Shown piece by piece: positions 19,927-62,000 of a stretch of 64,000 bases of DNA. Numbering within the stretch: position 1 is the stretch's first letter; every line of letters starts with the position of its first letter. The stretch is from Tubulanus polymorphus (taxonomy: Eukaryota; Animalia; Nemertea): positions 29,802,299 to 29,866,298 of the forward strand of contig NC_134025.1 of the NCBI RefSeq assembly GCF_964204645.1, written 5' to 3'. The notes beneath the pieces were generated by a model, which saw only the letters and a program-made list of their open reading frames with translations, was not told the DNA's origin and ran no database searches. The translations under genes were made by a program, and so were the position numbers.

Positions 19927-20471
19927 ATGAGTAGTCTAAAAGTACCTGTTGTTCCCTGGTATTCAGACTCATCTCATTTTCATCTCAGTAGTCTACTCTA
20001 AAAGTACCTGTCCCAGCCTAAGCCGTTGTTCCTGGTTTCAGACTCATCTCAGTTGTGTTGATCAGGTGCCGTGTTTAATTGGAAGGGAATTTAATTGGAA
20101 GGGACACTAGATTTAACTTTTATTTGATCGACACAGGAACCAGTTCCTGACGGTTTTAGGCGGTTCCTGACGGTGTTTAGTATGACCGATCTGACCAAAG
20201 GTTATTTCGGATAGCTAAGAAACTGAAGCCAGCCGCAGTGTGATGAGTTCGAGTCCCTAAATTTGGAACTGGAGAAACTGCTGTTGGTTTCCCAAATTGT
20301 ATTCAACAATGACCAGGGACGTGTAACTTATCTGAAGATTACATTTCTTATGAAAAAAAAGTAGCTCGACTAAAGCACCCCACTTTTTATGTGCTGTGCT
20401 CAATTAAATGCAGACCAGCTCAGAAATATGAAGGGATCGTGACACAAATACATAAATATTTTCTGAATCGT

Positions 20472-20746
20472 GCACTGTCACAGGGGCGGATCTAGGATTT
20501 TCCATGGGGGGGGGGGGGTGTCCAATGAGAAAAAGGGGCACTTTTTACGAAACACCACGTACTCCGGATACACAATTTTAGGGGGTGGTTTCGGTCATTT
20601 CATGCGATGAAAAAATATTATAGGTGGAATTTATAAAACCTTGGTCAAAAAAATTTTTTGGGTGACATTTTTGAGGGCACTTCAAAGTTGAGGGGGGGGG
20701 TCCGGACACCCCGACATCCCCCCTAGATCCGCCCCTGTGCCAGTGC
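20472..20746. mobile_element. MITE-like element with CAGGGGCGGATCTAGG terminal inverted repeats inserted in cluster 1
   Basis: gcactgtcacaggggcggatctagg (20472-20496) and cctagatccgcccctgtgccagtgc (20722-20746), one mismatch; no ORF; absent from the equivalent spacers at 26920-26980 and 28945-29010. Confidence 0.75.
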
Positions 20747-20787
20747 TTGTACGGTAGGATGTACTGTGAGGATGAGACAAATGATCA

Positions 20788-20856
20788 TTGTTACCAGCAC
20801 TGACCTGTGCTAATTACTGATAAATCACACCAGCACAAAGTCAGTGCTATTATCAG
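20788..20856 (-). ncRNA. Hairpin type A example; predicted 3p UAGCACAGGUCAGUGCUGGUAA (20812-20791)
   Basis: Arms CACUGACUUUGUGCUGGU / AUUAGCACAGGUCAGUG; apical UGUG at the start of the loop; CAUC (CNNC) at +17 from the predicted 3p end. Confidence 0.8.
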
Positions 20857-20920
20857 AGATAACCTCGACATCTTTCAAACGTGTTGGAATCCTTCCTGCG
20901 TCTGTGTAGATCACGACATC

Positions 20921-20988
20921 ACAGATCCCCACATACTCATGTGCTAGTGTTTTATAAATAACCAGCTCAGGAATATGAAGGGATCTGT
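20921..20988 (-). ncRNA. Hairpin type B example; predicted 3p UAGCACAUGAGUAUGUGGGGAU (20946-20925)
   Basis: GAUCCCUUCAUAUUCCUGAGCUGGU pairs with ACUAGCACAUGAGUAUGUGGGGAUC at 22 of 25 positions including G:U; CUAC (CNNC) at +16. Confidence 0.8.
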
Positions 20989-21033
20989 AACAACTTGTGT
21001 GCCTTCAATCATAATTTCTGTCGAGTTTTGTCC

Positions 21034-21101
21034 TTTGCCCTGGTATCATTTGGTGCTAGCAAACAAACATTAAACGAGCTCTCAGATGATACCAGGAGAA
21101 A
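21034..21101 (-). ncRNA. Hairpin type C example; predicted 3p UAGCACCAAAUGAUACCAGGGC (21058-21037), miR-29-family seed
   Basis: Stem CCUGGUAUCAU/AUGAUACCAGG; the 5' end UAGCACCA equals that of miR-29/285/995/998; CGAC lies at +14, slightly off the canonical position. Confidence 0.78.
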
Positions 21102-21148
21102 CATTTATACTTTAATTCTTGGTGATTTTAGGTGTCAGTATCTTGAAG

Positions 21149-21211
21149 CGCTCCCAGCACATGCCTGTGCTAGTAAACATCTAAAACTACCACGAGACTT
21201 GGACCAGGAAC
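21149..21211 (-). ncRNA. Hairpin type D example; predicted 3p UAGCACAGGC(A/C)UGUGCUGGGAG (21172-21151)
   Basis: Basal pairing GUUCCUGGU/GCUGGGAGC and apical pairing GUG(C/G)UAGU/ACUAGCAC; CACC (CNNC) at +17. Confidence 0.75.
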
Positions 21212-21840
21212 AATACAAAATAGAGAATAAGGATGAGACAAATGATCACTGTTACCAGCACTGACCTGTGCTAATTACTGATACATCACACCAGCACAAA
21301 GTCAGAGTTAGTTACAGAAAACTTCGAAATCTTTCGCGTTTGAATCCTTTTTCGATGAGTAAAACACCACAGATCCCCCCATATTTATGTGCTAATGCTC
21401 AATGAACGACCAGCTCAGAAATATGGAAGGAGTCGTGATATAAGTATTCACATGTAGTTCGATGCACTCCTAGTGCAAGCTCAGGTAGATGAGACAAATG
21501 ATCACTGTTACCAGCACTGACCTGTGCTAATTACTGATAAATGACACCAGCACAAAGTCAGTGTTAGTATCAGAGAAAACCTCGACATCTTTCAAATCTT
21601 TTATTTATTCAGATCTGAATAACACAATATCACAAATCCCCACATATTCATGTGCTAGTTGCTTTGTTAAAGACCAGCTCAGAAATATGAAGGGATCTGT
21701 AACTTGTGCATGTACTCGCAATGATTTTTTCTACCCGCTTAACTGCCATGTTCGCTCAACATTGTTTAGTCCATTTTTTAGTCCAATCCTCGATGTAAGC
21801 ACTAGGTATAATGATGTAAAGCTGTCTGGCTGACCAAGCG

Positions 21841-22068
21841 TTGAATGATGAACGATGGCAAAGGGGACCCATTTTTATCTAAGAGACGTTAGCTTAATTG
21901 AGTAAATTAGTGTTTTAGTTTTGAGACACACGAGTGATCATCAGTGATCGATATTCTCAATGTTTGTTTAATTAGTACTAATTAATACTCAAACTCGGGT
22001 TTAGGTTTAGAAGTTTTTTCTCTAAGTGGCGCCTGTCTGATTGTCGAACAAACAAATAATCGACAAAC
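21841..22068 (-). promoter_or_regulatory. Putative promoter of miRNA cluster 1 (duplicated block)
   Basis: Similar to 31026-31262. On minus, GATAAAAA (G at 21879) lies 33 nt upstream of the A of the Inr-like TCATTC (21848-21843). Palindrome TTAATTAGTACTAATTAA at 21968-21985. Confidence 0.55.
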
Positions 22069-22484: not shown

Positions 22485-25400
22485 ATGGCTTCTCTTCCTA
22501 TACGACTTTTAGGGCTGATGTTATTAGCTGTCAGTCTATTGCAGGTTGATGGACAGGACGGTAAGTAAAGGACTGAAACTTTCTTGATCTTGCCATGACG
22601 CAGATTTTCTTCGAACGGAAAAGGTCATCATCTTCATGATGATGAAACAGAATAATAGTGTACTAGGATATGGCTTTACAATGATAGAAAGAACAGGCAG
22701 TGCAGCTGGACCTTTTTGAAAATTTCGTCATATTTGTCATACGTATTTGCATATCGCTTTCGGTTTTTTTAACATCGTTCAGAGGGAAGGATCTAAGAGG
22801 GCGGGTTGACTATGAATGAGAAGGCAAGATCCAAGTGAGCATTGCATGCGTGTGAAGCAAAAATATATAGGGTATGGAAATTAAAGGGCATGAGGGAAAT
22901 ATTCGAAATATGCTGGGTTTTTATTCATTGTTGGTTTTTGCGCGCGGATGCCCCGAACCGACCCTTGGTTCCGTAACTGTTGCTCATTAGAAACATATTT
23001 TTGGCGGCATTCAAAAGGCCATCGGAATGCTTCAAACAATATCCCAGAGTAGGAACTCCGACCCCGTTTTGCCGATTATGATTGAACGTGTTTTATGAGA
23101 TGTACGAGTTTTGTCCATCATTAGATACACACTCAGTATCCGCCCATGATGATAACGATGTCAAGAGAGTGTTATGGAATATGTGTCAAAGATGATGGAA
23201 ACTGTTTTATTCGCCCTGGGATCAACGAAATGTATATTACATACATTAATTACGCGTATAATCACCGGGAATTAGAATGGTTATTCTGTTCCAATTAACG
23301 TTAGAGTGAGATATGTGCACTTAATGATTTTTTTTTCATGAAAAAGTATGTAATTGAAACACAAAGTAGCGCTGTAGCCATAGAAAACTTTATACGAATA
23401 TACCTCTTTGAAATCTGAAATAACTGTCTTACATAACATTCTTACTTAGAATGTACAATTTATATCATGTCTGTCCTTTATCTACGATCAACGGCCAAGC
23501 TGCCAACCATTCTCCAATTGCGATGAACGGACTATCAGGCAATGTCCAATAATACGGTAAAATCTTACAACACGGAAAAGAAAGATGAGTTTGAAAATTT
23601 TCTTTTTGAGCTAGTAGTTTATTTCGACGTTTCGACTAAATCAATCATCTTCAGGAATGCTTATTTATAACAGCAATTATGAAGTATATATGTATGAAGT
23701 ATATATGTATATACAATCTAGAACAAAAAGAATCAAGTATAATACAACATAGAAAAAATAACACTACATTCGTCATTATACAAAGAAGTAACCATTGATA
23801 CGATGTAAGCACTCTGTTAATTCTTTGCACTGCAATTCTATTCTAGTAGAAAAATGATACAAACCATTATGACTGACAAAAGAAAAGACTTTGTGTCAAA
23901 ATATTCAAAAAGTACACTCATTATTGATATCATCAAAGACTAGTCATAATGAATTTGTTTATAGAATTTATAAAACTTCAACAAAAGTTCGTTCTTTCAT
24001 TTATGCAATAACTGACGATTATTAATCTGTTCTGTTTATAACTGTTGCAGTAAGTCAATATCAACGCCTCTTCCAAGACCTGTTTTCAAACTACGATAGA
24101 CGAATTCTCCCGAGGAAAGACCAGAAAACCGTTCAAATACAATTCGGCGCAGCACTGATTAAAATAAATGAATTGGTAAATACGTTATATAGTGGACAAT
24201 ATCTCTATCTTCATGAATAAACATTATTCCTGATACAACGAGGGATGGGCATCTGAATAAATCCGATGTGAAATTTTCAAAATATCCCAGAAATATTGGA
24301 AATGTGCCCCTTTAGCCTTTTTCAGGACCCTCTGCTCCCCCCCCCCCACTCAATTGAAGTGCTTATTGTAGTTGTCAGTAACATCTCGAATGCGTCAGAA
24401 AATACAGGGCATAAATACGAGCAGGAATTTACTTTTCAAATATCTTTTTTCTAGAGTGAACGACAACAAATGTTACACGTGAACCTATGGCTTCGTATGG
24501 TAAATATATATAACTAGTGATTTCAGTTCAGTTTTGTTAATGCATGATCATTACATGAATCGTCTGGCGTTTTAACAATTTTGTTATGATTAGCATTGGA
24601 ATGACTTTCGTCTGGTTTGGACTCCTGCTGATTATGGTAACACCAGTGTTTTTCGTGTACCTGCCGATAATATTTGGTACCCGGATCTTGTCTTGTACAA
24701 CGAGTAAGCTAAAGTCTTAACACAGCCTTTTAAATGATCCAAAACTCAATCGTCAAAAGATATATATGTGATATTTTTGCGAATGTGACAAATTGTATGT
24801 TCTTTGATTCAGTGCCTCGGGTGGATTTGCTATACCAAGTGTAAACGGTAATGCTCACGCATTGGTCTACTCGGATGGTTCGGTCTTATGGATTCCCCCT
24901 AAACAGTTTCAAGTCATGTGTGAGATAGAGACATCAAGATTTCCTCACGATAGACATACGTGTTCGATGAAATTTGGATCTTGGACGTATAGCGGAGACT
25001 TGGTAAGTAGGACTCCAGTCTGAACCTGTGTCATAATACTCATTATTATTTATGAGGTAAGTATAAAGCCATAGCCGTGTAACTGAGTTCTTGAAACGTG
25101 TCCCACTTGTATGGTGTGATTCAGATTTATCTTTGATAGTGCCAAGATTAGTTAATTTTAATTCGCGTTAGAAGCAATATTTGATTACCGCGGCCAATTG
25201 CCGATTTCTGACAGGTTCTAATATTGCCGCAGCGAATTTACTTCAATTTTGTCAAAAACATAGTATATTTAGAAAGAAAAAAAAACATAATGCAGTAAAT
25301 TATTGCCGCGCCTACGCCACTGAATTTTCAAGTTCTCTCCCTGAGTAAAATGACACAAACTGTGGAACTCCATCCTGCTTCAAAGTGTGTATTATAATTA

Positions 25401-26324
25401 TACAGCTCAATATGACGTATTACGAAGGCAGAGAGGATCTTGATTTGAGCGACTATTCGGCAAATGATGATTGGGAAATAGTGGCGTCAACCGGTCGCAG
25501 ATTCGATAAATTCTATCCATGTTGCGTCGAGCCGTATCCGGACATTACTTACAATCTGACTTTAAAACGTACAAATCCAGATTTCTACGTCACATCGATA
25601 TTTCTACCCAGTGTCATATTGACGTTCATCGTACCCTTCCTTTTCCTCATTCGACCCGACAGATACGAGAAATCCATTCTAGGTACGTGTGAAATCATGC
25701 GAAAGATTATCATTCTGGCAATTAACACTTTATGAAAATGTTTGGCGAAATTTCACTGTTTTATCTAGGGATTGGAGCAACGTTAGGACTTCTATTTTTG
25801 TTGAAGATTAGTCTAGATATTTTCCCATCTGCGATGAAGAAAACTCCCGTTATTCGTAAGTATAAAAGTATCAAGAATAAGCTTTGATAATTTGAACGAT
25901 CCGTTTGATTATCTGATGTTTCTTTTTAACAGTAATGTTCCAAGCTGGTGGTTTATTCCTGGCCGGAATAGGTTTACTGATCACTCATATTCACGGTAAC
26001 TTATGGATCTCTAATTTCAAGAATTCGCCGCCGAATTGTCTTACATCGGTAAGTTATCCTATCTTTTTTTCTAATGGTCGAAATGCAGTTGAAATCTCCA
26101 AAACGTGAATTGATGGCGCATGTTATTTATTTTAGTTGTGTGTCCAATGTTTTGGACGTATTACATGCGTTGGTGCTGATGATGATGGCGAACCTTTGAA
26201 TGGCGAACAAAAGTCAGCTGCGGCAAGTGAATGGAGATTGCTGATCGCGGCCTGCAATCGGTTCTTGTTCATCGTTTTTATTGTGCTTATCACTGTTCTT
26301 GCATTTATTTTGCTCACTCCTTGA
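22485..26324 (+). CDS. Nicotinic acetylcholine receptor alpha-like subunit (Cys-loop channel), multi-exon
   Basis: Signal peptide [23 protein letters not shown]; [17 protein letters not shown]; WNDFRLVW; [10 protein letters not shown]; Cys-loop [15 protein letters not shown]; KFGSWTY; loop [12 protein letters not shown] with vicinal cysteines; M1-M4 ending [21 protein letters not shown]-stop. Confidence 0.9.
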
Positions 26325-26742
26325 AATACATAAAAATTTCCGTTTGAGCTAGTTTCCATCAAGTCAAAAGCAAAGAGCGCTCAGTTCACAAGATATAGGT
26401 CTAAGGACCACACAATATACATCTAATCAATATGCACGAATTCGTTTATGTTTATAGCTTCATTTGGCATTATATGGTACAATTATATATAACAATCTAG
26501 CAGTCTATCTAATTCTAACAGCATGTAAAAAATCTTTTTGTATTGAATGGATTTTATTCGAATATAACATTTTTTCAAATAAACGTATGTTTAATAAAGA
26601 GCAATAAGAGTAAAATTTGACGAATTTTCGTCGTCTTCTTAAAAGTTATTTATCCAGTATATGATATTCATAATTTAATTGTTTCAATATCTGGGATCAT
26701 TCCTGGTACAGCTGTGTTAAAAGGAGTAGCATACGAAGATCA

Positions 26743-29700
26743 CTGTTAACAGCACTTGACCTGTGCTAATTACTGATATATCACACCAGCACTAAGTCGG
26801 TATTGGTATTAGAGAAACATTGAAATCCTTCTTCGGGTTTGCAGTCAACAAGATCGCAGATCCCCACATATCTATGTGCTAGTGCTCAATTAATGACCGG
26901 CCCAGAAATATGAAGGGATTAGTGACACAACTATTCACACACATGCGCTCTTATAGTGCAAGTTTGTACGAGTAGATTCTGTGAGACAAATGATCATTAT
27001 TACCAGCACTGACCTGTGCTAATTACTGATAAATCACACCAGCACAAAGTCAGTGTTAGTTACAGATAAAATATCGAAAACTTTCTCGTTTAAATCCTTT
27101 TTCGATGATTGAAACACCACAGATCCCCACATATTTATGTGCTAATGCTCAATGAATGACCAGCCCAGAAATATGAAAGGAGTCGTGATATAAGTATTCA
27201 CATGTAGTTCGATGCACTCCTAGTGCAAGCTCAGGTAGAATATGAGGATGAGTCAATTGATCACTGTTACCAGCACTGACCTGTGCTAATTACTGATAAA
27301 TCACACCAGCACAAAGTCAGTGTTAGTTACAGAAAACATCGATCCTTCCTGCATCTGTGTAGATCACGACATCACAGATCCCCACATACTCATGTGCTAG
27401 TGTTTTATAAATAACCAGCTCAGGAATATGAAGGGATCTGTAACAACTTGTGTGCCTTCAATCATAATTTCTGTCGAGTTTTGTCCTTTGCCCTGGTATC
27501 ATTTGGTGCTAGCATACAAACATTAAACGAGCTCTCACGTGATACCAGGAGAAACAAACCTTTGAATCTTCCCTGAAATCAAATCTGTTGTTTGGCATTC
27601 ACGTATACTGGTGTCAGTATCTTGAAGCGCTCCCAGCACAGGCCTGTGCTAGTAAAACATATAAAACTAGCACGAGACTTGAACTAGGAGCAATACAAAA
27701 CAATAAACGATGACCTGTGCTAATTACTGATAAATCACACCAGCACAAAGTCAGTGTTAGTTACAGAAAACATCGATCCTTCCTGCATCTGTGTAGATCA
27801 CGACATCACAGATCCCCACATACTCATGTGCTAGTTGTTTATAAATAACCAGCTCAGGAATATGAAGGGATCTGTAACAACTTGTGTGCCTTCAACCATA
27901 ATTCCTGCCGAGTTTTGTCCTTTGCCCTGGTATCATTTGGTGCTAGCATACAAACTTTAAACAAGCTCTCAGGTGATACCAGGAGAAACAAACCTTTGAA
28001 TCTCCCGTTTCTTCTATCTGTTGTTTGGCATTCACGTTACTGGTGTCAGTATCTTGAAGCGCTCCCAGCACAGGCCTGTGCTAGTAAAACATATAAAACT
28101 AGCACGAGACTTGAACTAGGAGCAATACAAAACAATAACGATGACCTGTGCTAATGTACTGATAAATCACACCTAAGTCAGTGTTAGTTACAGAAAACAT
28201 TGACCCTTCCTGCGTCTGTGTAGGACACGACATCACAGATCCCCACATACTCATGTGCTAGTTGTTTATAAATAACCAGCTCAGGAATATGAAGGGAACT
28301 GTAACAACTTCGTAAGGCTTCAACCATAATTCCTGCCGAGTTTTGTCCTTTGCCCTGGTTATCATTTGGTGCTAGTAAACAAACTTTAAACAAGCTCTCA
28401 GGTGATACCAGGAGAAACAAACCTTTGAATCTCCCGTTTCTTCTATCTGTTGTTTGGCATTCACGTTACTGGTGTCAGTATCTTGAAGCGCTACCAGCAC
28501 AGGCCTGTGCTAGTAAAACATCTAAAACTACCACCACGAGACTTGGACCAGGAACAATACAAAACAACGAGAAATGAGGATGAGACAAATGATCACTATT
28601 ACCAGCACTGACCTGTGCTAATTACTGATAAATGACACCAGCACAAAGTCAGTGTTAGTTGCAGAAAACATCAACATCTTTCAAATCCTTCTTCAGGTTA
28701 CAATATCACAAATCCCCACATATCTATGTGCTAGTTGCTTTATCGATGACCAGCTCAGAAATATGAAGGGATCTGTACCTATTGCATGTACCCGTAATAA
28801 TCCCCACCTACGCCCCAGTAACGTTCAAGTAAACGACATCATGCAAACGTCCTTTCAAATTGGCAGTAGACAATATCACGGATCCCCACATATCTATGTG
28901 CTAGTGCTTCAATTGATAACCAGACCAGAAATATGAAGGGATTCGTGACACAAGTATTCACTTTCATGCGCTCTTATAGTGCAAGTTTGTACGAGTAGAA
29001 TGTGAGGATGTGACAAATGTTCACCGTTACCAGCACTGACCTGTGCTAATTACTGATAAATCACACCAGCACAAAGTCAGAGTTAGTTACAGAAAACATC
29101 GAAATCTTTCGCGTTTGAATCCGTTTTCGATGAGCAAAACACCACAGATCCCCCCATATTTATGTGCTAATGCTCAATGAACGACCAGCCCAGAAATATG
29201 AAAGGAGTCGTGACGTAAGTATTCACATGTAGTTCGATGCACTCCTAGTGCAAGCTCAGGTAGAATGTGAGGACGAGTCAATTGATCACTGTTACCAGCA
29301 CTGACCTGTGCTAATTACTGACAAATCACACCAGCACAAAGTCAGTGTTAGTTACAGAAAACTTTGACATCTTTCAAACGTGTTGGAATCCTTCCTGCGT
29401 CTGTGTAGTGCACGACATCACAGATCCCCACATACTCATGTGCTAGTGTTTTATAAGCAACCAGCTCAGGAACATGAAGGGATCTGTAACAACTAGTGTG
29501 CCTTCAATCATAATTTCTGTCGAGTTTTGTCATTTTCCCTGGTATCATTTGGTGCTAGCAAACAAACATTAAACGAGCTCTCAGATGATACAAGGAGAAA
29601 CAAACGTTTTTACTTTAATTCTTGGTGATTTTAGGTGTCCGTATCTTGAAGCGCTCCCAGCACAGGCCTGTGCTAGTAAAACATCTAAAACTAGCACGAG

Positions 29701-30976
29701 ACTTGAACTAGGAACAATACAAAACAACGAGAATAAGGATGAGGAAATAGATCACTGATACCAGCACTGACCTGTGCTAATTACTGATAAATCACACCAG
29801 CACAAAGTCAGTGTTAGTTACAGAAAAAATATCGAAAACTTTCGCGTTTAAATCCTTTTTCGATGAGTGAAACACCACAGATCCCCACATATTTATGTGC
29901 TAATGCTCAATGAATGACCAGCCCAGAAATATGAAAGGGGTCGTGATATAAGTATTCACATGTAGTTCGATGCACTCCTAGTGCAAGCTCAGGTAGAATA
30001 TGAGGATGAGACAAATGATCACTGTTACCAGCACTGACCTGTGCTAATTACTGATAAATCACACCAGCACAAAGTCAGTGTTAGTTACAGAAAACATCGA
30101 TCCTTCCTGCATCTGTGTAGATCACGACATCACAGATCCCCACATACTCATGTGCTAGTGTTTTATAAATAACCAGCTCAGGAATATGAAGGGATCTGTA
30201 ACAACTTGTGTGCCTTCAATCATAATTCCTGCCGAGTTTTGTCCTTTGCCCTGGTATCATTTGGTGCTAGTAAACAAACATTAAACGAGCTCTCAGGTGA
30301 TACCAGGAGAAACAAACGTTTCAATCTTCCCTTTCTTCAATCGGTTGTTTGGCATTCACGTTACTGGTGTCAGTATCTTGAAACGCTCCCAGCACAGGCC
30401 TGTGCTAGTAAAACATCTAAAACTAGCACGAGACTTGGACCAGGAACACTACAAAACAACGAGAAATGAGGATGAGACAAATGATCACTGTTACCAGCAC
30501 TGACCTGTGCTAATTACTGATACATCACACCAGCACAAAGTCAGAGTTAGTTACAGAAAACATCGACATCTTTCAAGTTCTTCAGGTTAGCAGATCAAGA
30601 TATTCCCACATCCCCACGTGCTAAAATGACAGCTAGCACAGGAACATGCGGGAACCACGACAGATCCCATGAGACATCGAACAGAAACGCTACAAAACCT
30701 TTCCTAAGCATTACAAATCCCCACATACTCATGTGCTAGTATTATATCGAAACCAGCTCAGAAATATGAGAGGATCTGTATTTACTTAATGTACCATCAA
30801 ACATTCTGAGTTCTGTCCTTTGCCCTAGTATCATTTGGTGCATTAAGCGAGCTCCCACACGATACCAGGAGAAACAACGCTTAGTCCAATCCTTGGTGAC
30901 TGTGTTCCACGACGCTCCCAGCACAGGCCTGTGCTAGTAAAAATCTGAAACTACCACGAGACTCTGACCAGGAACG
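26743..30976 (-). ncRNA. Candidate microRNA cluster 2: about 36 tandem pre-miRNA-like hairpins (11 A, 12 B, 6 C, 6 D, 1 E; about 3 degenerate)
   Basis: A at ~26743, 27000, 27264, 27711*, 28142*, 28599, 29026, 29289, 29755, 30022, 30488. B at ~26859, 27122, 27374, 27808, 28235, 28708, 28877, 29147, 29420, 29880, 30132, 30712. C at ~27487, 27921, 28349, 29533, 30245, 30819*. D at ~27628, 28060, 28489, 29652, 30384, 30913. E at 30603. * = damaged. 3p arms are nearly invariant within a type, while loops and spacers vary. Confidence 0.85.
30603..30654 (-). ncRNA. Hairpin type E (single copy); predicted 3p UAGCACGUGGGGAUGUGGGAAU
   Basis: UUCCCGCAUGUUCCUGUGCUA pairs with UAGCACGUGGGGAUGUGGGAA with two mismatches; 10-nt loop. 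Confidence 0.6.
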
Positions 30977-31025
30977 CTACAAAACAACTTGACTGCTTGA
31001 CTGTGTCGTTATAAGATGCGAGACT

Positions 31026-31262
31026 TGAATGATGAATGATGGTTTAGTGGGCCCATTTTTATCTAAGAAACGATGGTTAATTGAGTAAATTAGTGTTTTA
31101 GTTTTGAGACACACGAGTGAACATCAGTGCGATCGATTCTCAATGTTTGGTTAATTAGTACTAATTAGAAGTTAATTAATACTCAAACTCGGGTTGAGTT
31201 TCAGAGATTTTTCTTTTAGTGGCACCTGCCTAATTGTTGAATAAACAAACAATATACAAACA
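31026..31262 (-). promoter_or_regulatory. Putative promoter of miRNA cluster 2 (duplicated block)
   Basis: Paralogue of 21841-22068 with the same 33-nt spacing from GATAAAAA (G at 31063) to TCATTC (31032-31027) and the TAATTAGTACTAATTA palindrome. Confidence 0.55.
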
Positions 31263-31852: not shown

Positions 31853-34800
31853 CTAGGTGTCGGGTAAAGTTCCTTTCAGATACCACACCATTCCTTTATG
31901 AACGCAATAATCCTAGAAAACAACAGCAAAAACATTAAAGACATATGAAAATAACCCGTTGAAGTGGAAAATTGAGATTGTTTTCAAACTGACCTTTAAA
32001 ATGCGTTTAGTATCGGCCTCTAGAGGTGCCTCACCAGTCACTAATTCAACTTGTTGTTTTAAAGCTGCATTACGTATTTTACACTGTTTAGTGAACATAT
32101 CTAACATAATACCGCGTATCTACAAGAGAAACAATCATTCTGTTTACTATTACAGTTTAATAAACCGTATGTAAGAGCAACAGTAAATGAAATACTCACA
32201 ACATCAAATTTATCTCCGGTTTTCGCCAAAGCGTACATCGGTTCTTCTTTACTATTCACGGGCCACTGTAAATAAATACATTGGGAGAACGATAAACACA
32301 CTCAAACGTGGTGAACGGATAATAAGATAAAATCCCACAATTTACAGATTAAAAGAATTTAAAAGCAATCTCACCCTAGAGATCATCGTCACACCTGACG
32401 ATGATCTCTAGGGTGAGATCGAAACGTCGTGTCTTTTAAATTAAATATTTTAGATTTAATAAATAAATTCTTGTTTTTAAATTCTTTTAATCTGTAAATT
32501 GTGGGATTTTATCTTATAAATACATTGTATACAATACATAAAATGATGAATTTCTAATGCACTGTAATTCTATATACAGAATATTTAATGCAATCTATCT
32601 TCAGCCATTCATATCAATTTAGCATGAAGTGTGGACCTTTACTCATAGTTCTGAACCAATGCGAAGTGTGGATGAAGTGTGGATGAAGTGAGGATGAAGT
32701 GTGGATGAAATGCGGATGAAATGTGGATGTTCATTATAAATTTAATAAGGCTCGAGTGAAGTTCTGAACACGTTTGAAGTGTGGACAATCAAAGATTGGA
32801 AGAATTGTGAGGAATGTGTGAGGGTTATGGGAATCCGAGGTCCATATATTACCTGATTATTTAACTTCACTCCCCCGACCTCTACCACAGTCTCTTCGAG
32901 CAGTTTCTCCGATATTCCTCCCGTTATCGATGTCTCTGACGACGAAATCTGCGCTAATTTAATCGAAAATAATCGTTTTAAATCCGATAACGAGATCACG
33001 TAGCGACTGTACAGTTTTTCCTGGATGAAATTGCGTAATTCCATTTTCACTTCCAGCGAAGTCGCATTGTCGTTCGTAGAATGAGTCTCAACGGATATTT
33101 CCATCGGAACGCAGTTTGATTCACCATTAACGCGAGCTATTTGATTATTATCGACCTCCATTTGAACGTTGGTCTCGTTATCGCTGGGTTCTGATTGCGA
33201 ATGCGCACGCGTTCGCTCGCTTTCACTTTTAGTACGCGATCGAGAACTGTTTCTGCGTCTCCTCGGTTTCTCAACAATAGCTTCAGCTACAAATACAATT
33301 TTGCTAATTAAATTTGGAAATGAACTAATTTTTACTTTACTTTGGAACTAGGTCCAAAACTTTCTTTGCTGTATTCTAATTAAGACTTAATTTATCACCT
33401 TTGATCTTTTTCTCCATTTCTTTAGTTATTTTGAGCACCTTCGCCAGTTGTTGATACTTTGCATCCCACAACATGTTTTGTCTTTGAACAACATCTGGAT
33501 GTCTGAAAAATATAGCGTCATCGTTTTTCGAATTTGAAAAAAAATATCAACACTCAGCCCTGACCTATATCTATAGCTTACTTGTCTATGAATTCCTTAT
33601 CATATTCCATAATAAATTCCCATCCAACGTTCACCCGAACTTTGGACATTTGTTGTAAGATATCTTTGACATCTTCTGCCGGAAGCTGAAACATAACGAA
33701 GGTCACGCTTCAAAACATATTACATGCATAAACTAACTCACGAAATAATATAAACACCAGTCGTACCTTTATCACAGATGAAATATCTTTTCGCACGATA
33801 AAACGATTTTGAGTAAAACGCCAAACCTACAATTAGAAAAATACACGATCATAGAATAATAGATTTTAACACAAGATTCATGGATTTGATATCAGGACAC
33901 ATATAAAGACTGCCCTTTACAGCCATTACTGCCATATGCTAGAGGTTCGTAAAATATCTATTATCTTTTTATCATTACTATTATAATGACAAATCTGCCA
34001 CCGGGTTTAGAATAACATACCACATAGTCGCGGCCTCGACACAAGACTTCAGCTGGTATTCCACTATGAGCACTACACGTATCCTTAGGATACAAAATCT
34101 CACTGAAATTATATAATACCATTTGACCGATTCGATCGTAAAAATTCTTGATTCAAACTCTTTAAAACAGAATATGATTTCAAATACCTTTTTACCATCC
34201 AGCAACCTTGAACAAGCATCGCGACTTGTTGTAGAGATCTGAGAGCTATCGCTGGATCTGTGTCTCGTGGTAACAATGCCATCAACTGACTGTACTTTAT
34301 AACTTTGGCTGAAAGAAAAACCGAAAACTATCGCGTTAGTCCTCTGCTGTAATGCACGCATCTTCATCGTAATCGATCGGAATTTGACAGTTATTTTACC
34401 ATTGATTAGTAATGCTTTGATTTGATCACTTATCGTCATAGTTTTTAACTGCGTCATTGAAAGCACATTGCTCGGTAAAGCTGGACGTTCTCTGAAAATA
34501 AATACCATTCATTCGATCATTACCTGCACAGATCATGGATCATCTACAATGGAAATTAGCGATTAGATTTAAACTTACTCGGTTTTGTTTGCCTCGGGTG
34601 GAAGAAGCATCGATATGTAATCTTTAGCTGAACTGTGAAATTCGGAAAAATCTTGACTTCGATTCGAGAACAAATTTACCTTTTCAGCTTCACTTAGTTC
34701 ACTCTGCAATCGAAACAATTTGGGACTTTGTACAATTATGAGGTTTATTTCCTAGATAAATTCAGACCTAGATGAATGAGTGAGAAAATCCAATGTTTGA

Positions 34801-52000: not shown

Positions 52001-55000
52001 GATAATGTACCTGTTATTTTGACCTCACAGAGTTCTATCGATATTCACCGTGTCGACAAACCGTATTAAAACACATCAAGTCGTACGATGCGAACAAATT
52101 TCATTACGTCGTCTTCGGGTCAAAATTCCGTCACATTTTCTCTCGCGCGTTTTGCGTGAGTCATGTTCGCGGCGCGATCGAGTTCAGTATTTTATTAACA
52201 AGTGTCGGATGGCTGGATGATTAAACCACTTTGTCTCATGCCTGTCAATGATATCCCATCCCTGACTCGTTTTCCCGGGCCGGAAAATCGCCTCGAATTC
52301 GATTTGCGCCGATTCAATGGCGAATTGATATGCGACGAAAAGGCTTTCGATTCAGTTTTGCGAATAATCGAGGTTGAACAGTTTGATCGTAATTCAATCC
52401 GAATGATAAGATCGTTCGAATCAAATGACGCAAAATCTCAGAACTGTTAGATGATTTGAACATCAGCATTCTGATTATAACTGCTTTAGAATTGGTGCCT
52501 GTAACTATCTACATGCAGTCGGCTAAGAATGTCCGACTTAGAGTAATTCAGATTTAGGGATATTCGTTTAAAATTCAACCGAGTAAAAAAAATCTAAATT
52601 GAGCCTACTTCGCACAAACCACATCATAGCTGTCTATAGCGCTATATAAACTCTTGTGGTATATGAATAATCCTTACAATTTATCTTTTAATTGTGGGTA
52701 TTTGTTAAATACTTGTAGAACATTTCTATGTTGTTGCGTATATTGTTTGTTGATAATGGCTACAGATATGTTTGTTATTGTTCCATTGTTTTGTATCAAT
52801 GTTGCTTCATATCTAGAAATTTCACCGTTTTTTCTCTCTTCTAATTTTTGAATATTGTAGGCTAGGAACGTGTATAAACAAGCAGTAAAACAGATGCCTT
52901 ATGAAGTAACTCTGTGGAAAGACGTAATGTTACATTTCTATTTCACCGTTTCATCATTCATTTCATATTTCATAGAATACTCATCGTTATTATGAATTTA
53001 GAGGTTCTGGAGGTGTCGGTATTTTTTCTCAATTTTTCTAAATGTTCATCCTTCGAGGCTCAAGAGAATTCATACTGGTACTGATAAAAAGGGTCTTTCA
53101 GGAGTCTGGGGGAAGCATCATGGGTTTTGGGGTAGCTTTCAGGAGTCTGGGGAAAGCATCAGGGGTTCTGGGTTAGCTTTCATGAGTCTGGGGGAAGCAT
53201 CAGGGGTTCTGGGTTAGCTTTCAGGAGTCTAGGGAAAGCATCAGGGGTTTTGGGGTAGCTTTCAGGAGTCTGGGGGAAGCATCAGGGGTTCTGGGGTAGC
53301 TTTCAGGAGTCTGAGGGAAGCATCAGGGGTTCTGGGGTAGCTTTCAGGAGTCCGAGGGAAGCATTAGGGGTTCTGGGTAGCTTTCAGGAGTCTAGGGAAG
53401 TTACAGGGGTTTCCCGGTAGCTTTCAGGAGTCTGTGGGAAGCATCAGGGTTTTGGGATAGCTTTCAGGAGTCTAGGGAAGTATCAGGGGTTCTGGGGTTG
53501 CTTTCAGGAGTCTGGGGATGTTACAGGGGTTCTGGGGTAGCTTTCAGGAGTCTAGGGAAGTATCAGGGGTTCTGGGGTTGCTTTCAGGAGTCTGGGGAAG
53601 CATCAGGGGTTCTGGGGTAGCTTTCAGGAGTCTGGGGGAAGCATCAGGGGTTCTGGGTTAGCTTTCTACGGAAGCTTCAGTGTTTTCGTGGTAGCTTTCA
53701 AGAGTCTGCAGAGTCTTTAGGAAAGCTTCAGGGGTTTCAGGTAGCTTATTGTGCTGTTCTATTCTCTTGTTTTCATACTTGTTGATCTGTACGCTTCTGT
53801 TTGAAATTGAAAAACCTCACAAGCAGCACACACCACACGCACTGATGAATAATAGATGAGTTTTGGGTCGTTAGTAATAATTAATGCGCTATTAATAAGT
53901 CTTTAAAGAGAAGATGTTTGAATTGCTCGTCAATCTGTCAAATATAGCACTCGAGTGAATCCTCCTCGTTTCGTTCGATAGCTCTTCACATGTCGTCGGG
54001 TATCGATGAAAAAAATCAGTCGAGTGGTAATTAAAACTAACTCATCAATAACAAGTAATGAGACCTGTAGAATACAGTACAGATAGTCTGGTTCTGTCTG
54101 TGTGTGTGGGTTGTAGTTATAGAGGAGCTGTTATACCTGGTATACAATCAGTAAACATAAAGATAAATAGTACTTTGAAGGTAAACTAGATTTATTTGCC
54201 CCTTATTTCATAAAACGTTGCCTTTTCATCTGAAACGCTCTTTTAAAAAATCTAACATTTCCATCTTTTATAAAAAATAACAAAAGCATTTTTTCGCCTT
54301 CGGTTATTATTATTTTACAGACCGATTTTCCGATACAAAACATCGATAAAACTGCGTAGAATTTCGAGTAGTTTCACCGCAGTGTTTTCAGTGACGACCA
54401 ACTGCCGATAGACAATCGTTACAATTATTGTAAAATGTGTAATATTGTCAGCGGAGGCGGCAGCGGTCAGGAGGAGAGACTGCCGGTGATTCATTTAAAC
54501 CACGCATCAATCACTCTTTGATAATTAATTGTCATTGTGTCATCACACTCTATAACAAACATTACTCTCTGTATTGTTACTCGGTTCAGATAAGTCTAAT
54601 TAATCAGTTAAACGCAGCATTGTTTGTCGTGTGAATTATCAAATATTAGAACACACGATTCTCGATTATTTGTTTGATGATGAATGCGACGTTTTTTCAG
54701 TTATAAATCACTTTAAGTCCACACGCGTTACTATTATCATTATACGTGGTGCTTCGTGGTCATTCGTATGAATTAGTTACGGGTCAATTAACACTCAACG
54801 CTTTTGGTCATGAATTCCACGAGTCTAAAACTATTCACTAATGTACTATAATCAATGTGATGAACTATGACGAATGACATCGAACTTTATGTTAATGCAA
54901 TATTTCAAATATTGCGTTATTGTATTTGAAGCTTTCGTAGTACAGCAACGTACCAGAAGCCGATTTCTAAGTTCTTGGTTAAGATTTTGGCCGAACTTGA

Positions 55001-55495: not shown

Positions 55496-55690
55496 GCTGG
55501 CCTACTGTCAGTCCGGAGTGGGCTAGCTTGCTGTCAGCCCGGAGTGGGCTAACCTACTGTCAGTCAGGAGTCTGAAAGCTTGCTGTCAGCCTGGAGTGTG
55601 CTGGCCTGCTGTCAGCCTGGAGCTCGCTGGCCTGCTGTCAGCCTGGAGCACGCTGGCCTGCTGTCAGCCTGGAGTGCGCTGGCCTGCTGC
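55496..55690. repeat. ~25-bp tandem repeat in the ZFC3H1 3' region
   Basis: gctggcctgctgtcagcctggagtgc-like unit, about 7-8 copies. Confidence 0.85.
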
Positions 55691-59083: not shown

Positions 59084-62000
59084 TTATCCCTGATTATTGT
59101 TCATGTTGTAGAGACGCCTCATTTTTTCCTGCTCGGTCATCGTCTGAAAAATACAGAAATGACGACAAAAACAGAAAATTAATAAAGCTAAATTACCACC
59201 ACATACAAAAGAACCAGGAAAGAACTCGTAATTGTGGTTCATAAATGTTTAAAATAGAAGGGAATTTACCGTTTGCTGTCCGGGACACAGAGGTAAAACA
59301 CAATATCTTCTTTCTAAACGCGAATCGCAAGGCTGTCCACCCCATCGGTCTTTCTTGATGATTGATCTGGTTCGCTCTTGTATGTTGTCATCTCCACATG
59401 TTTGAGGACAAGGCGACCACTGAGACCATTCTCCTAATTCACAGTCTCTTGCTGCAATTGATAGACAGATACTGATAGCTGACGGCAATGTACTGTCATA
59501 TCATAATTACACTAAAAGTTAGGATATCATACAATCAATATGATGCCATGATTCACTTGGCATTTCCATAGACGTCAATGATACACTTCTGATGTTCAAT
59601 TACTGGTGGTTCCAGCTCGCTTTACGTAGAAATGCAGAACTTGGGCGTTATTTCCGATTTTTTGTTATATATACTTACGACATTTTGCCGCGTGCTTGCA
59701 TCGCTTTCTTTGTACAAGTTTTTTCGGACACGGTTGTCCGCCTTCTTCAGCTTCTCGTTTAATCATCCTGGCGCGAGTGCTGTGACCTCGACCGCATGTC
59801 CGAGAACACGGTGACCATTCTGACCACTGAGTGACCATACAGTCAGCCGTATCCCCGGCCTGAATACCCGGTATACTGTTTATACTGTGGTCTGGAATTT
59901 GGCGCCTGCCTTGGCTTTCTAAATCTAGAATAAACAAAATGTAACATTGAAGAACAGTTTCACCAGTTAAAGATTTAGCAGATATTATTAGATTATGTAT
60001 CATTATTCTTTATCCCAAACTACACGATGATAAAAAGGAAATGCCATTCAAGTCGATGTTAACCAGGAGAAGTTACAAACTTGTAACCATAAAACACGGC
60101 CCTGGCGCCATGGAAATGCATACAACCCTCAAAATCTGTTTTTATACACATATGCTGGTATCATCCATCCACATATCATTCACTAGTATTATAAGTGGTC
60201 AATTCAAATTCTCATTCTAACCCCAGGGGCGGATTTAGACTGTGTCGACCGTGTCGCCCGACACGGTCGGAATTCTAAAGTGCCTTTTTATTTTTTCTCT
60301 GTATCAAAATTTGCCGTTGTAACCACCCGAGATACACAATAGATATTTTTCCTAAATATAAAACCTATGTTTCTTGACTAAATGCCTCTCAGAGATGCTC
60401 AGAAAGCTCTAAAATGTTAGTAAAATCTAAAACATTTTGCTGATATGCCTTTCCGCCCTGAATTAAGAATATATGCCCTTTTTATTGGTCGACATGGTCA
60501 CAACATGCCCCTGGATCCACCCCTGAACCCGGGCACCGACCGACCACGATCTTCGTTTTAAAACAACACTTACGTCTTTTTAACTCGGCGCAATCTCTTT
60601 CGCACTTCTCTTCTGTTTCAAAACGATTACCATTTCCACGACAACCTCCATAATGGAACGGTATGCATTTTCTCATCGTTGTTTCGAAGTAATACCTCAG
60701 GAAACTGCCTCTACACGGCCCTACATCCTTCGGTAATTGACAGGCGGCTGAAAAATGAAACAGCACTCGATATGTAAATACGCGCAAATCTGAGTATCGA
60801 ATTTGACTCTATCGTTCGAACGAAAACAATAGTTACCTGAAAAGTTTTTGACAGCTCCTTCACGAGAACAGTCATCGATTCGACCCGTACAAGTTTCTCT
60901 CTGATGCAGATCGCGTGAACAATCGCGTCCTTCGAGTCGTCGGATATAGAATCTCTGTCGTTCTCTGATACCTTCACCGCAAGTGACGCTACACGGGGAC
61001 CACTCGGACCAGGCGGATACCGCGCATTCCTCGCTGTAATCGCATTCATTTTCTATTCCTAAACAATTCTCTTTCTCCATTAATGCTATGTTACACATGT
61101 TTGGATTGATTCCTGTAATTAACGATCGTTTTCTGACCATCATTCCAACTCCACAGGTTACGCTGCAAGCTGACCAATCCGACCAATCAGATACTGCGCA
61201 TTTACCTGAAAATAGTACAATTTTTACGTTGAAGAACAGTTTCAAAGCTTCAATAGAGAATATCGACAAAAACATCATTATGAGCTGGTATGTACATTTT
61301 TCACTTTTTTCAATACTAAGTATTGGTAAAAATGACATTATGAGCTAGTTCGTACATTTTTGTTTTTTTTTTTCAATACAAAGTATTGGTAAAATTGTCA
61401 TTGTGAGCTGGTATGTATATTTTTGCTTTTTTCAATACAAAGTATTGGTAAAAATGTCATTGTGAGCTGGTATGTATATTTTTGCTTTTTTCAATACAAA
61501 GTATTGGTAAAAATGTCATTGTGAGCTGGTATGTATATTTTTGCTTTTTTCAATACAAAGTATTGGTAAAAATGTTATTGTGAGCCGTCATTTTTGATTA
61601 GATATTCAAAACAATACGCGTGTCACCATAATACTCTGACTAAGAGTATTGTCGAGGTGAAACTAACCCATCATTAACTTCTTCTTGGCCATGTCCTCGG
61701 AAAGATCAGATCCTTGAGTAAATCGTTCATCAGTTAAAGTATCACGCACGCATTCGTCATCGCTGTACGGATCTAAACGCCTTAGAAATATCGTAGCCAT
61801 CGGTTTTATCGGTTCGGGAGAATGGAACGGCGACCTCCAATCATCAGGAAACCTGTTCGTTATTTTGTGGATTTTCTCTTGCGGTTGAGTTTTCCAATTA
61901 TCCGACTAAAAAAAAGATATCCATTCGTTCGAAAAGGTCAAGTGTTTGATATCGATACCTTTTTTCGAATCGGTACCAAAGTTACTACGATATTCTGTTA

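Follow-up and report, generated by a model that had tools for sequence, protein, structure and literature searches.

Organization of the arrays

The window analysed here is a 64,000 nucleotide (nt) stretch of the genome of the nemertean Tubulanus polymorphus (assembly GCF_964204645.1, contig NC_134025.1, positions 29,802,299 to 29,866,298 of the forward strand). It harbors two tandem arrays of short hairpins whose 3p arms start with UAGCAC. These arrays are a genuine feature and, very probably, a microRNA (miRNA) megacluster, which is a known kind of organization. The arrays and the elements that belong to or interrupt them are as follows.

26743..30976, minus strand: large array, 35 UAGCAC 3p arms, 32 of them intact, and one seedless type C copy
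20791..21694, minus strand: sister array, 8 hairpins in the order DAEABCDA, missed by the preliminary description of this DNA
20375..20440, minus strand: degenerate D/E-type copy, the ninth of the sister array, with the seed U lost and the hairpin not recovered as the minimum free energy (MFE) fold
20481..20737, strand not assigned: insertion resembling a miniature inverted-repeat transposable element (MITE), bounded by terminal inverted repeats of 15 bp and interrupting the tail of the sister array

The preliminary description had reported approximately 36 hairpins of five types, all with one seed, in the large array. The number holds: the minus strand carries 35 TAGCAC sites within 26768-30936, compared with 0.87 expected per strand, and a seedless, degenerate type C hairpin lies at approximately 30815-30880 on the same strand. 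The sister array, its degenerate ninth copy and a duplicated upstream block had been overlooked. The ninth copy sits past the MITE-like insertion, and the bin containing the insertion (20170-20803) has a high contig depth. The set of 43 hairpins used below consists of the 35 large-array and 8 sister-array sites; a further TAGCAC at 20849, in a 5p flank, is excluded everywhere.

Five multi-copy types are found across both arrays, as had been described, namely A (14 copies), B (7), C (6), D (8) and E (7), and to these a singleton, type F, must be added. Types D and E are close relatives. The unit order in the large array is BDFABCDAEABCDAEAEEABCDABCDABCDAEAEA. Neighboring sites are 104-198 nt apart, with two additional steps of 70-71 nt where copies are truncated. 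The description of the hairpins as sharing a seed is correct for nt 1-6, which are common to all, but nt 2-8 fall into four seeds: AGCACAG (21 copies), AGCACAU (15), AGCACCA (6) and AGCACGU (1). Most copies are intact, with three exceptions that are truncated or degenerate (28153, 27722 and 26768). The shuffled unit order and the truncated copies indicate unequal crossing-over. The type A copies at 28153 and 27722 carry the same deletion, which joins the 3p arm to the next type B flank and was then duplicated, and this shared deletion is a marker of unequal crossing-over.

The type B mature arms are near-palindromic (30915-30936 and other type A and B arms, minus strand), and the type A arms include GUGCU, which is complementary to the seed of the same arm. 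Folding of these arms on themselves could compete with loading, or could record an origin by inverted duplication.

Hairpin structure and Microprocessor motifs

One precursor of each type is listed below. The z-scores of these representative folds are from 200 shuffles, and the anatomy presumes a 22-nt 3p arm counted from the U of UAGCAC.

30025..30085, minus strand: type A, 61 nt, z -5.5; apical UGUG, mismatched GHG at +3 to +5, CNNC at +17
29654..29712, minus strand: type B, 59 nt, z -7.0; UG at -14, CNNC at +17; mature arm identical to oyster reads at 20 of 22 positions
27924..27983, minus strand: type C, 60 nt, z -1.7; miR-29 seed AGCACCA, CNNC at +14; the weakest hairpin
27812..27869, minus strand: type D, 58 nt, z -6.1; GHG sequence at +3 to +5, CNNC at +16
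21373..21430, minus strand: type E, 58 nt, z -5.3; star arm similar to Capitella 'confident-14'
30602..30653, minus strand: type F, singleton, 52 nt, z -4.0; seed AGCACGU

Folding on both strands, a check that had been suggested beforehand, gave z<-2 for 37 of the 43 hairpins. Their mean MFE is -31.3 kcal/mol, compared with -14.1 kcal/mol in 150 background windows. The minus strand folds better in 37 of 43, the exceptions being five type C copies and one truncated copy. The earlier claim that G:U pairs define the strand is upheld for those 37 hairpins and fails for five of the six of type C.

Most intact copies have 17-20 of the 22 mature nt paired (15 in the copy at 27511, 16 in that at 26881); approximately 16 pairs are the minimum for a canonical miRNA. 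Most intact precursors are 58-61 nt long with stars of 22-23 nt and loops of 13-16 nt, the loop of type F (8 nt) being an exception. By the MirGeneDB criteria, a canonical animal miRNA gene has arms of 20-26 nt, a loop of at least 8 nt, about 16 or more pairs and the geometry of a 2-nt overhang, and the hairpins agree with this structure. The dimensions agree with the MirGeneDB medians, which are 22 nt for arms, 15-16 nt for the loop and approximately 60 nt for the precursor (PMC11701709; here and below, published work is cited from the available parts of each paper and its supplements).

Motifs were counted in 40 intact copies, with 28153, 27722 and 26768 dropped. The CNNC motif, whose window is +16 to +18, is found at +16/+17 in 29 of the 40, compared with a background of 8-11%. 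As the copies are not independent, a count by type is fairer, and this gives four of six types (p~0.002); in type C the motif lies at +14/15, and type F is without it. GHG is present at +3 to +5 in 23 of 40 copies, with the middle base mismatched in type A. A basal UG at -14 is confined to type B (6 of 7) and an apical UGUG to most of type A, so that all four Microprocessor motifs are represented.

Sequence divergence and repeat status

Divergence within types climbs from seed to mature arm, star, loop, lower stem and flank. Expressed as mismatches per cell in the 39 intact copies of types A-E, it is 0 at nt 1-8, partly by construction given that sites were selected on TAGCAC, 0.018 at nt 9-22, 0.040 in the star, 0.080 in the loop, 0.09-0.10 in the lower stems and 0.22-0.27 in the flanks, where it is inflated by recombined junctions. 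Substitutions do, as the preliminary description had it, fall mostly outside the mature arm.

Summed contig depth in a DNA run, X1, is 27-143 over the arrays, 24-68 over unique flanks and 337-65,572 in repeat bins, a rough measure rather than a copy number, from data that may be the source of the assembly and are the sole basis for genome-wide copy number. The short X1 contigs cannot verify the length of the arrays. An X1 contig with 20 differences spans from unique DNA at 25763 into the array at 26951, indicating that the locus is present beyond the haplotype of this assembly. Another DNA run, X3, was uninformative, with one 50-base piece over 19 kbp that include JMJD4- and RPC5-like exons. 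Neither the high genome-wide copy number nor the uniform decay along the unit expected of a dispersed satellite or transposon was found, given the X1 depth and the non-uniform divergence. A metagenome scan with the type A arm gave 0 matches, and a phage blastn search gave no match.

It could be argued that the arrays are a repeat, either a local satellite or one in decay, or that they give rise to PIWI-interacting (piRNA) or small interfering RNA (siRNA), with units that fold but escape miRNA processing. Tandem Repeats Finder does report a 434-bp period with 94% identity, and truncated and seedless copies are present. We nevertheless regard this as very improbable: CNNC and GHG hold their positions across different sequence types, divergence rises from mature arm over star and loop to flank, depth is near single-copy, a promoter-like block is duplicated and the homologues are supported by reads. 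In addition, the available part of a study of the nemertean Notospermus gives no detected endo-siRNA signature. The view of the preliminary description, a high-copy tandem pre-miRNA cluster and not a satellite, is borne out by hairpin geometry, Microprocessor motifs, the divergence gradient and the sequenced 5' ends of homologues, which lie exactly at UAGCAC. We are highly confident that the arrays are genuine miRNA genes.

Upstream blocks

Each array is preceded by a block with promoter-like motifs.

31025..31261, minus strand: upstream block of the large array; TATA-like GATAAAA at 31063, initiator (Inr)-like TCATTC at 31039 and 31032, nine TAATT on both strands
21841..22068, minus strand: upstream block of the sister array; GATAAAA at 21879, TCATTC at 21848, six TAATT

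The two blocks are identical at 199 of 224 aligned bases and have sharp edges. In both, GATAAAA lies 31 nt ahead of an Inr-like TCATTC, and TAATT occurs nine and six times per approximately 230-bp block, compared with a window mean of 5 per kbp. Judging the TATA-like and Inr-like motifs against consensus sequences, we infer that each block is a putative RNA polymerase II (Pol II) promoter. A[AT]TAAA signals are found downstream of both arrays.

Relatives in oyster, Capitella and Platynereis

In oyster, at least 164 reads in 13 rows among the matches listed, from Ov and Mt libraries, have their 5' end at UAGCAC without exception, and they carry one mismatch to the oyster locus NC_047563.1_16214 (PMC11114477). 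Within the window, the read sequence matches all seven type B arms, with 2-3 mismatches, and no other site (0.00 expected by chance). The chance probability of 20 of 22 identical positions is 7e-7, or 4e-5 after approximately 50 comparisons.

The Capitella entry 'confident-14' has 2,106 mature and 13 star reads (PMC8915122). Its star is identical by eye to the D/E star at 16 of 22 positions, and a 15-nt piece of it, picked after the fact, matches 13 array sites at 1-2 mismatches and one unrelated site in the window, compared with 0.19 expected. Candidate-23, which starts with UAGCACA, has multiple copies on scaffolds 60 and 324 among the matches listed (PMC8915122).

The Platynereis miRDeep2 list contains 144 'uagcacc' matches (PMC12257675, supplement 2); with two matches in every row seen, this corresponds to approximately 72 rows. 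Rows 37-52 comprise two canonical Mir-29 entries and 14 non-canonical ones. The latter are in tandem within 39 kbp (scaffold 13) or 21 kbp (scaffold 24), and have 24,088-59,410 mature reads, shared among copies, and star reads too. The curated tables of the same study, as far as available, hold only Mir-29-P1 and P2 under the UAGCACC motif (PMC12257675). The type C star is identical, in register, to one Platynereis tandem star at 16 of 23 positions. The GAGCU of type D stars, some type E stars, type C stars and two Capitella stars forms a mismatch opposite mature nt 5 and is not forced by pairing. The suggestion that the locus is lineage-specific is not supported in view of these close, read-bearing relatives in three other genera.

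In three hairpins on Platynereis scaffold_241, the mature arm is similar to the star of the tandem UAGCACC family and lies on the opposite arm (PMC12257675, supplement 2); an arm or strand switch is possible.

Probable relationship to MIR-29

MIR-29 (Mir-29-P1/P2), placed at the bilaterian node in MirGeneDB 3.0, has in common with the arrays a 3p mature arm that begins at UAGCAC, and with type C the full seed. The miR-29/285/995/998/49/83 sequences have been grouped by seed (PMC2486268). The best UAGCAC-anchored Rfam match is likewise mir-29. The MIR-29 seed AGCACCA is present on the 3p arm in 6 of 43 hairpins (type C), and 37 have other nt 7-8. Among the matches listed, the type C mature arm is identical by eye to Capitella Cte-Mir-29-P1 at 17 of 22 positions, including 11 of the 16 past UAGCAC (p=6e-4), and to the Rfam mir-29 consensus at 15 of 22. 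Similarity to MIR-29 beyond the seed is limited to type C; the other types have nothing past UAGCAC. The statement that no described family is recognizable is likewise unsupported in view of type C and of the relatives above. We file the arrays as MIR-29-related and not as members, since the Rfam gathering score is not reached, and as part of a trochozoan group for which the literature searched gave no name.

Other Rfam matches (mir-4773, -2329, -4798, -891, -308 and -3912) are generic hairpin matches far below threshold. An identity with MIR-12096 or miR-746 was unsupported: main-text literature searches and Platynereis supplement 4 gave no match to MIR-12096, and MIR-746 is absent from the MirGeneDB family table.

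When the mature sequences and the variants of the seed were searched for in the main text of papers, no miRNA paper was returned. Literature searches also returned no paper on Tubulanus miRNAs or on a UAGCAC family, and no named, conserved spiralian high-copy family with one seed. Lineus is represented in MirGeneDB 3.0 by five NOVEL families, among others, and the Notospermus study has 91 unassigned miRNA genes. These, and the remaining rows of the Capitella, Platynereis and Notospermus supplements, may already hold orthologues.

A nemertean-specific novel family, whose UAGCAC start converged on that of miR-29 and of the annelid and oyster hairpins, would be in keeping with the unmet Rfam mir-29 threshold, with the non-miR-29 seeds of types A, B, D and E, and with the practice of MirGeneDB to assign families by descent and not by seed. 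It is improbable in view of the oyster match, which is unlikely to be due to chance, the GAGCU mismatch common to types D, C and some E and to Capitella, and the identity of type C with Mir-29-P1. A relationship of the arrays with both MIR-29 and the trochozoan homologues is probable.

Neighboring genes and repeats

The flanking genes are ordinary animal genes, with Pfam matches in the window to RPC5, a TBC1D15-type Rab-binding domain and a ligand-gated channel. Spondin is matched as well, and one spondin exon is identical at 121 of 122 positions to a Tubulanus polymorphus protein. Two more genes we take, by recognition and not by search, to be JMJD4 and ZFC3H1; a search with the ZFC3H1-like exon gave no named relative. 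A compact nicotinic acetylcholine receptor-like gene (24026-26321, plus strand; Neur_chan_LBD match) lies between the arrays and ends head-on with the large one. At 26558-26679, polyA-like signals of the two strands overlap. An RPC5 intron contains, at approximately 32290-32480, a short repeat of very high copy number, probably a MITE, with an X1 bin depth of 65,572 and joints to the opposite strand. Ordinary minisatellites were found by Tandem Repeats Finder at 53095-53666, 55496-55689 and 61268-61585, with periods of 41, 26 and 59 bp.

Proposed function

On balance, we suggest that both arrays are polycistronic miRNA genes of a MIR-29-related family that is shared with annelids and molluscs, tandemly amplified and expressed at high dose, most likely in embryos or larvae. 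In brief, Pol II would transcribe each array from its upstream block as a polycistron, and the Microprocessor, aided by GHG and CNNC, would crop precursors of 58-61 nt. DICER1 would then free the 22-nt 3p arm into a miRNA Argonaute. The nemerteans examined in the Notospermus study have DICER1, and DICER2 is absent from them. The pooled UAGCAC small RNAs may repress mRNAs with GUGCUA-core sites, and variation at nt 7-8 could broaden the target set around the miR-29 site.

Several observations weigh against this proposal. In the whole window, none of the Rfam families attains its threshold, type C scores 22.8 and 21.1 bits against Rfam mir-29 (RF00074) with a gathering score of 46.7, and unrelated Rfam hairpin families score equally high on types B and D. 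The type C folds are weak (z -1.0 to -2.8) and, in five of the six hairpins, slightly more stable on the plus strand; with CNNC at +14, its cut sites may be shifted. The D/E alignment, in which pairing holds for 94.9% of cells and one pair of the mature arm alternates between C-G and U-A, has three pairs changed on both sides, and this covariation is no better than a shuffled control (266 of 500 shuffles reach the same). The star identities to annelid hairpins are partly forced by pairing with the shared seed. The multi-copy UAGCACA entries of Capitella are, among the matches listed, of the 'candidate' class only, with approximately 200 reads (PMC8915122). Processing and 5' ends in Tubulanus are predictions from sequence, and the small-RNA reads, like the indications of stage, come from homologues in other species. 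As for stage, the Platynereis libraries are pooled samples of 24-144 hours post-fertilization (hpf) (PMC12257675), and the oyster homologue has, among the matches listed, similar low counts in ovary and somatic libraries (PMC11114477). It follows that neither data set demonstrates a role in the maternal-to-zygotic transition.

The same genes and family could instead owe their dose to a role in adults, in the gonad or in particular tissues, as in testis clusters, or to a general miR-29-like role, and not to early development. The even oyster counts fit such a role, Drosophila testis has large tandem clusters as well (PMC8915122), and no stage is fixed by the DNA itself. We consider such a role possible but rather unlikely. 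The Platynereis relatives are abundant at 24-144 hpf (PMC12257675), and novel Capitella miRNAs, taken as a whole class, are enriched from post-zygotic to larval stages (PMC8915122). Low adult oyster counts would also fit an early-stage gene read off-peak. For a burst mainly in embryos or larvae we express a slight preference.

High-copy miRNA clusters with one seed drive the clearance of maternal mRNA in fish and frogs. That the Tubulanus arrays serve maternal mRNA clearance specifically is, by analogy, a tentative idea that we rather doubt. Equally speculative is the idea of a miR-430 counterpart of the spiral cleavers, an ancient unnamed MIR-29 offshoot in nemerteans, annelids and molluscs that would have been arrayed repeatedly, with nt 7-8 drifting, would clear maternal or early mRNAs, and would have been omitted from curated lists because its copies multi-map.

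Comparison with known systems

In Platynereis, Capitella, oyster and Lingula, canonical Mir-29 consists of two clustered genes, whereas the Tubulanus arrays have 43 copies. It differs further in that 37 of these copies have other nt 7-8 and in that the Rfam score is half the threshold. The locus also suggests how a family as old as MIR-29 may gain new target sets, by amplification together with change at seed nt 7-8.

The unnamed miRDeep2 hairpins (Platynereis scaffolds 13 and 24, Capitella confident-14 and Candidate-23, oyster NC_047563.1_16214) have in common with the arrays the 5' UAGCAC, stars of 22-23 nt with GCUGGU- or GCUGAU-like ends and precursors of 55-62 nt. Both annelids share the tandem multi-copy layout, and the printed oyster precursor has CNNC at +17. 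Nt 7-8 differ by species, being CA, UA/UG or AC in the relatives and AG, AU or CA in Tubulanus. The spacing of the Platynereis and Capitella copies seen ranges from hundreds of bases to kilobases, compared with approximately 120 nt in Tubulanus, and the oyster entry is, among the matches listed, one locus, unlike the arrays. New here are a nemertean locus with twin promoter-like blocks and the connection between it and hairpins of two other phyla that have reads but no name. The locus joins scattered miRDeep2 entries of three phyla into one candidate family with the target core GUGCUA, and the question is directly testable in Platynereis, Capitella and oyster, laboratory animals for which small-RNA data exist.

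The miR-430/427 clusters of fish and frog share with the arrays tandem variants with a common seed core, concerted evolution, loss of variants and changes at seed nt 8 (PMC10417697). The Tubulanus arrays are, like miR-430, tandem, multi-variant and high-copy, but do not carry the miR-430/427 seed AAGUGCU. Zebrafish miR-430 has a promoter per two or three triplets, whereas we found one promoter-like block per array. Maternal clearance is a demonstrated feature of miR-430, whereas the Tubulanus arrays are known from sequence alone.

The nearest spiralian parallel in the literature searched is the embryonic cluster on Capitella scaffold_488, tandem duplicates which, like the Tubulanus arrays, invite comparison with miR-430 and have been likened to it (PMC8915122). 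A top member (CAPTEscaffold_488) starts with UAAGCACC, with the AGCACC core shifted by one base, and its seed register differs from that of the Tubulanus family. This member may target sites that overlap those of the UAGCAC family.

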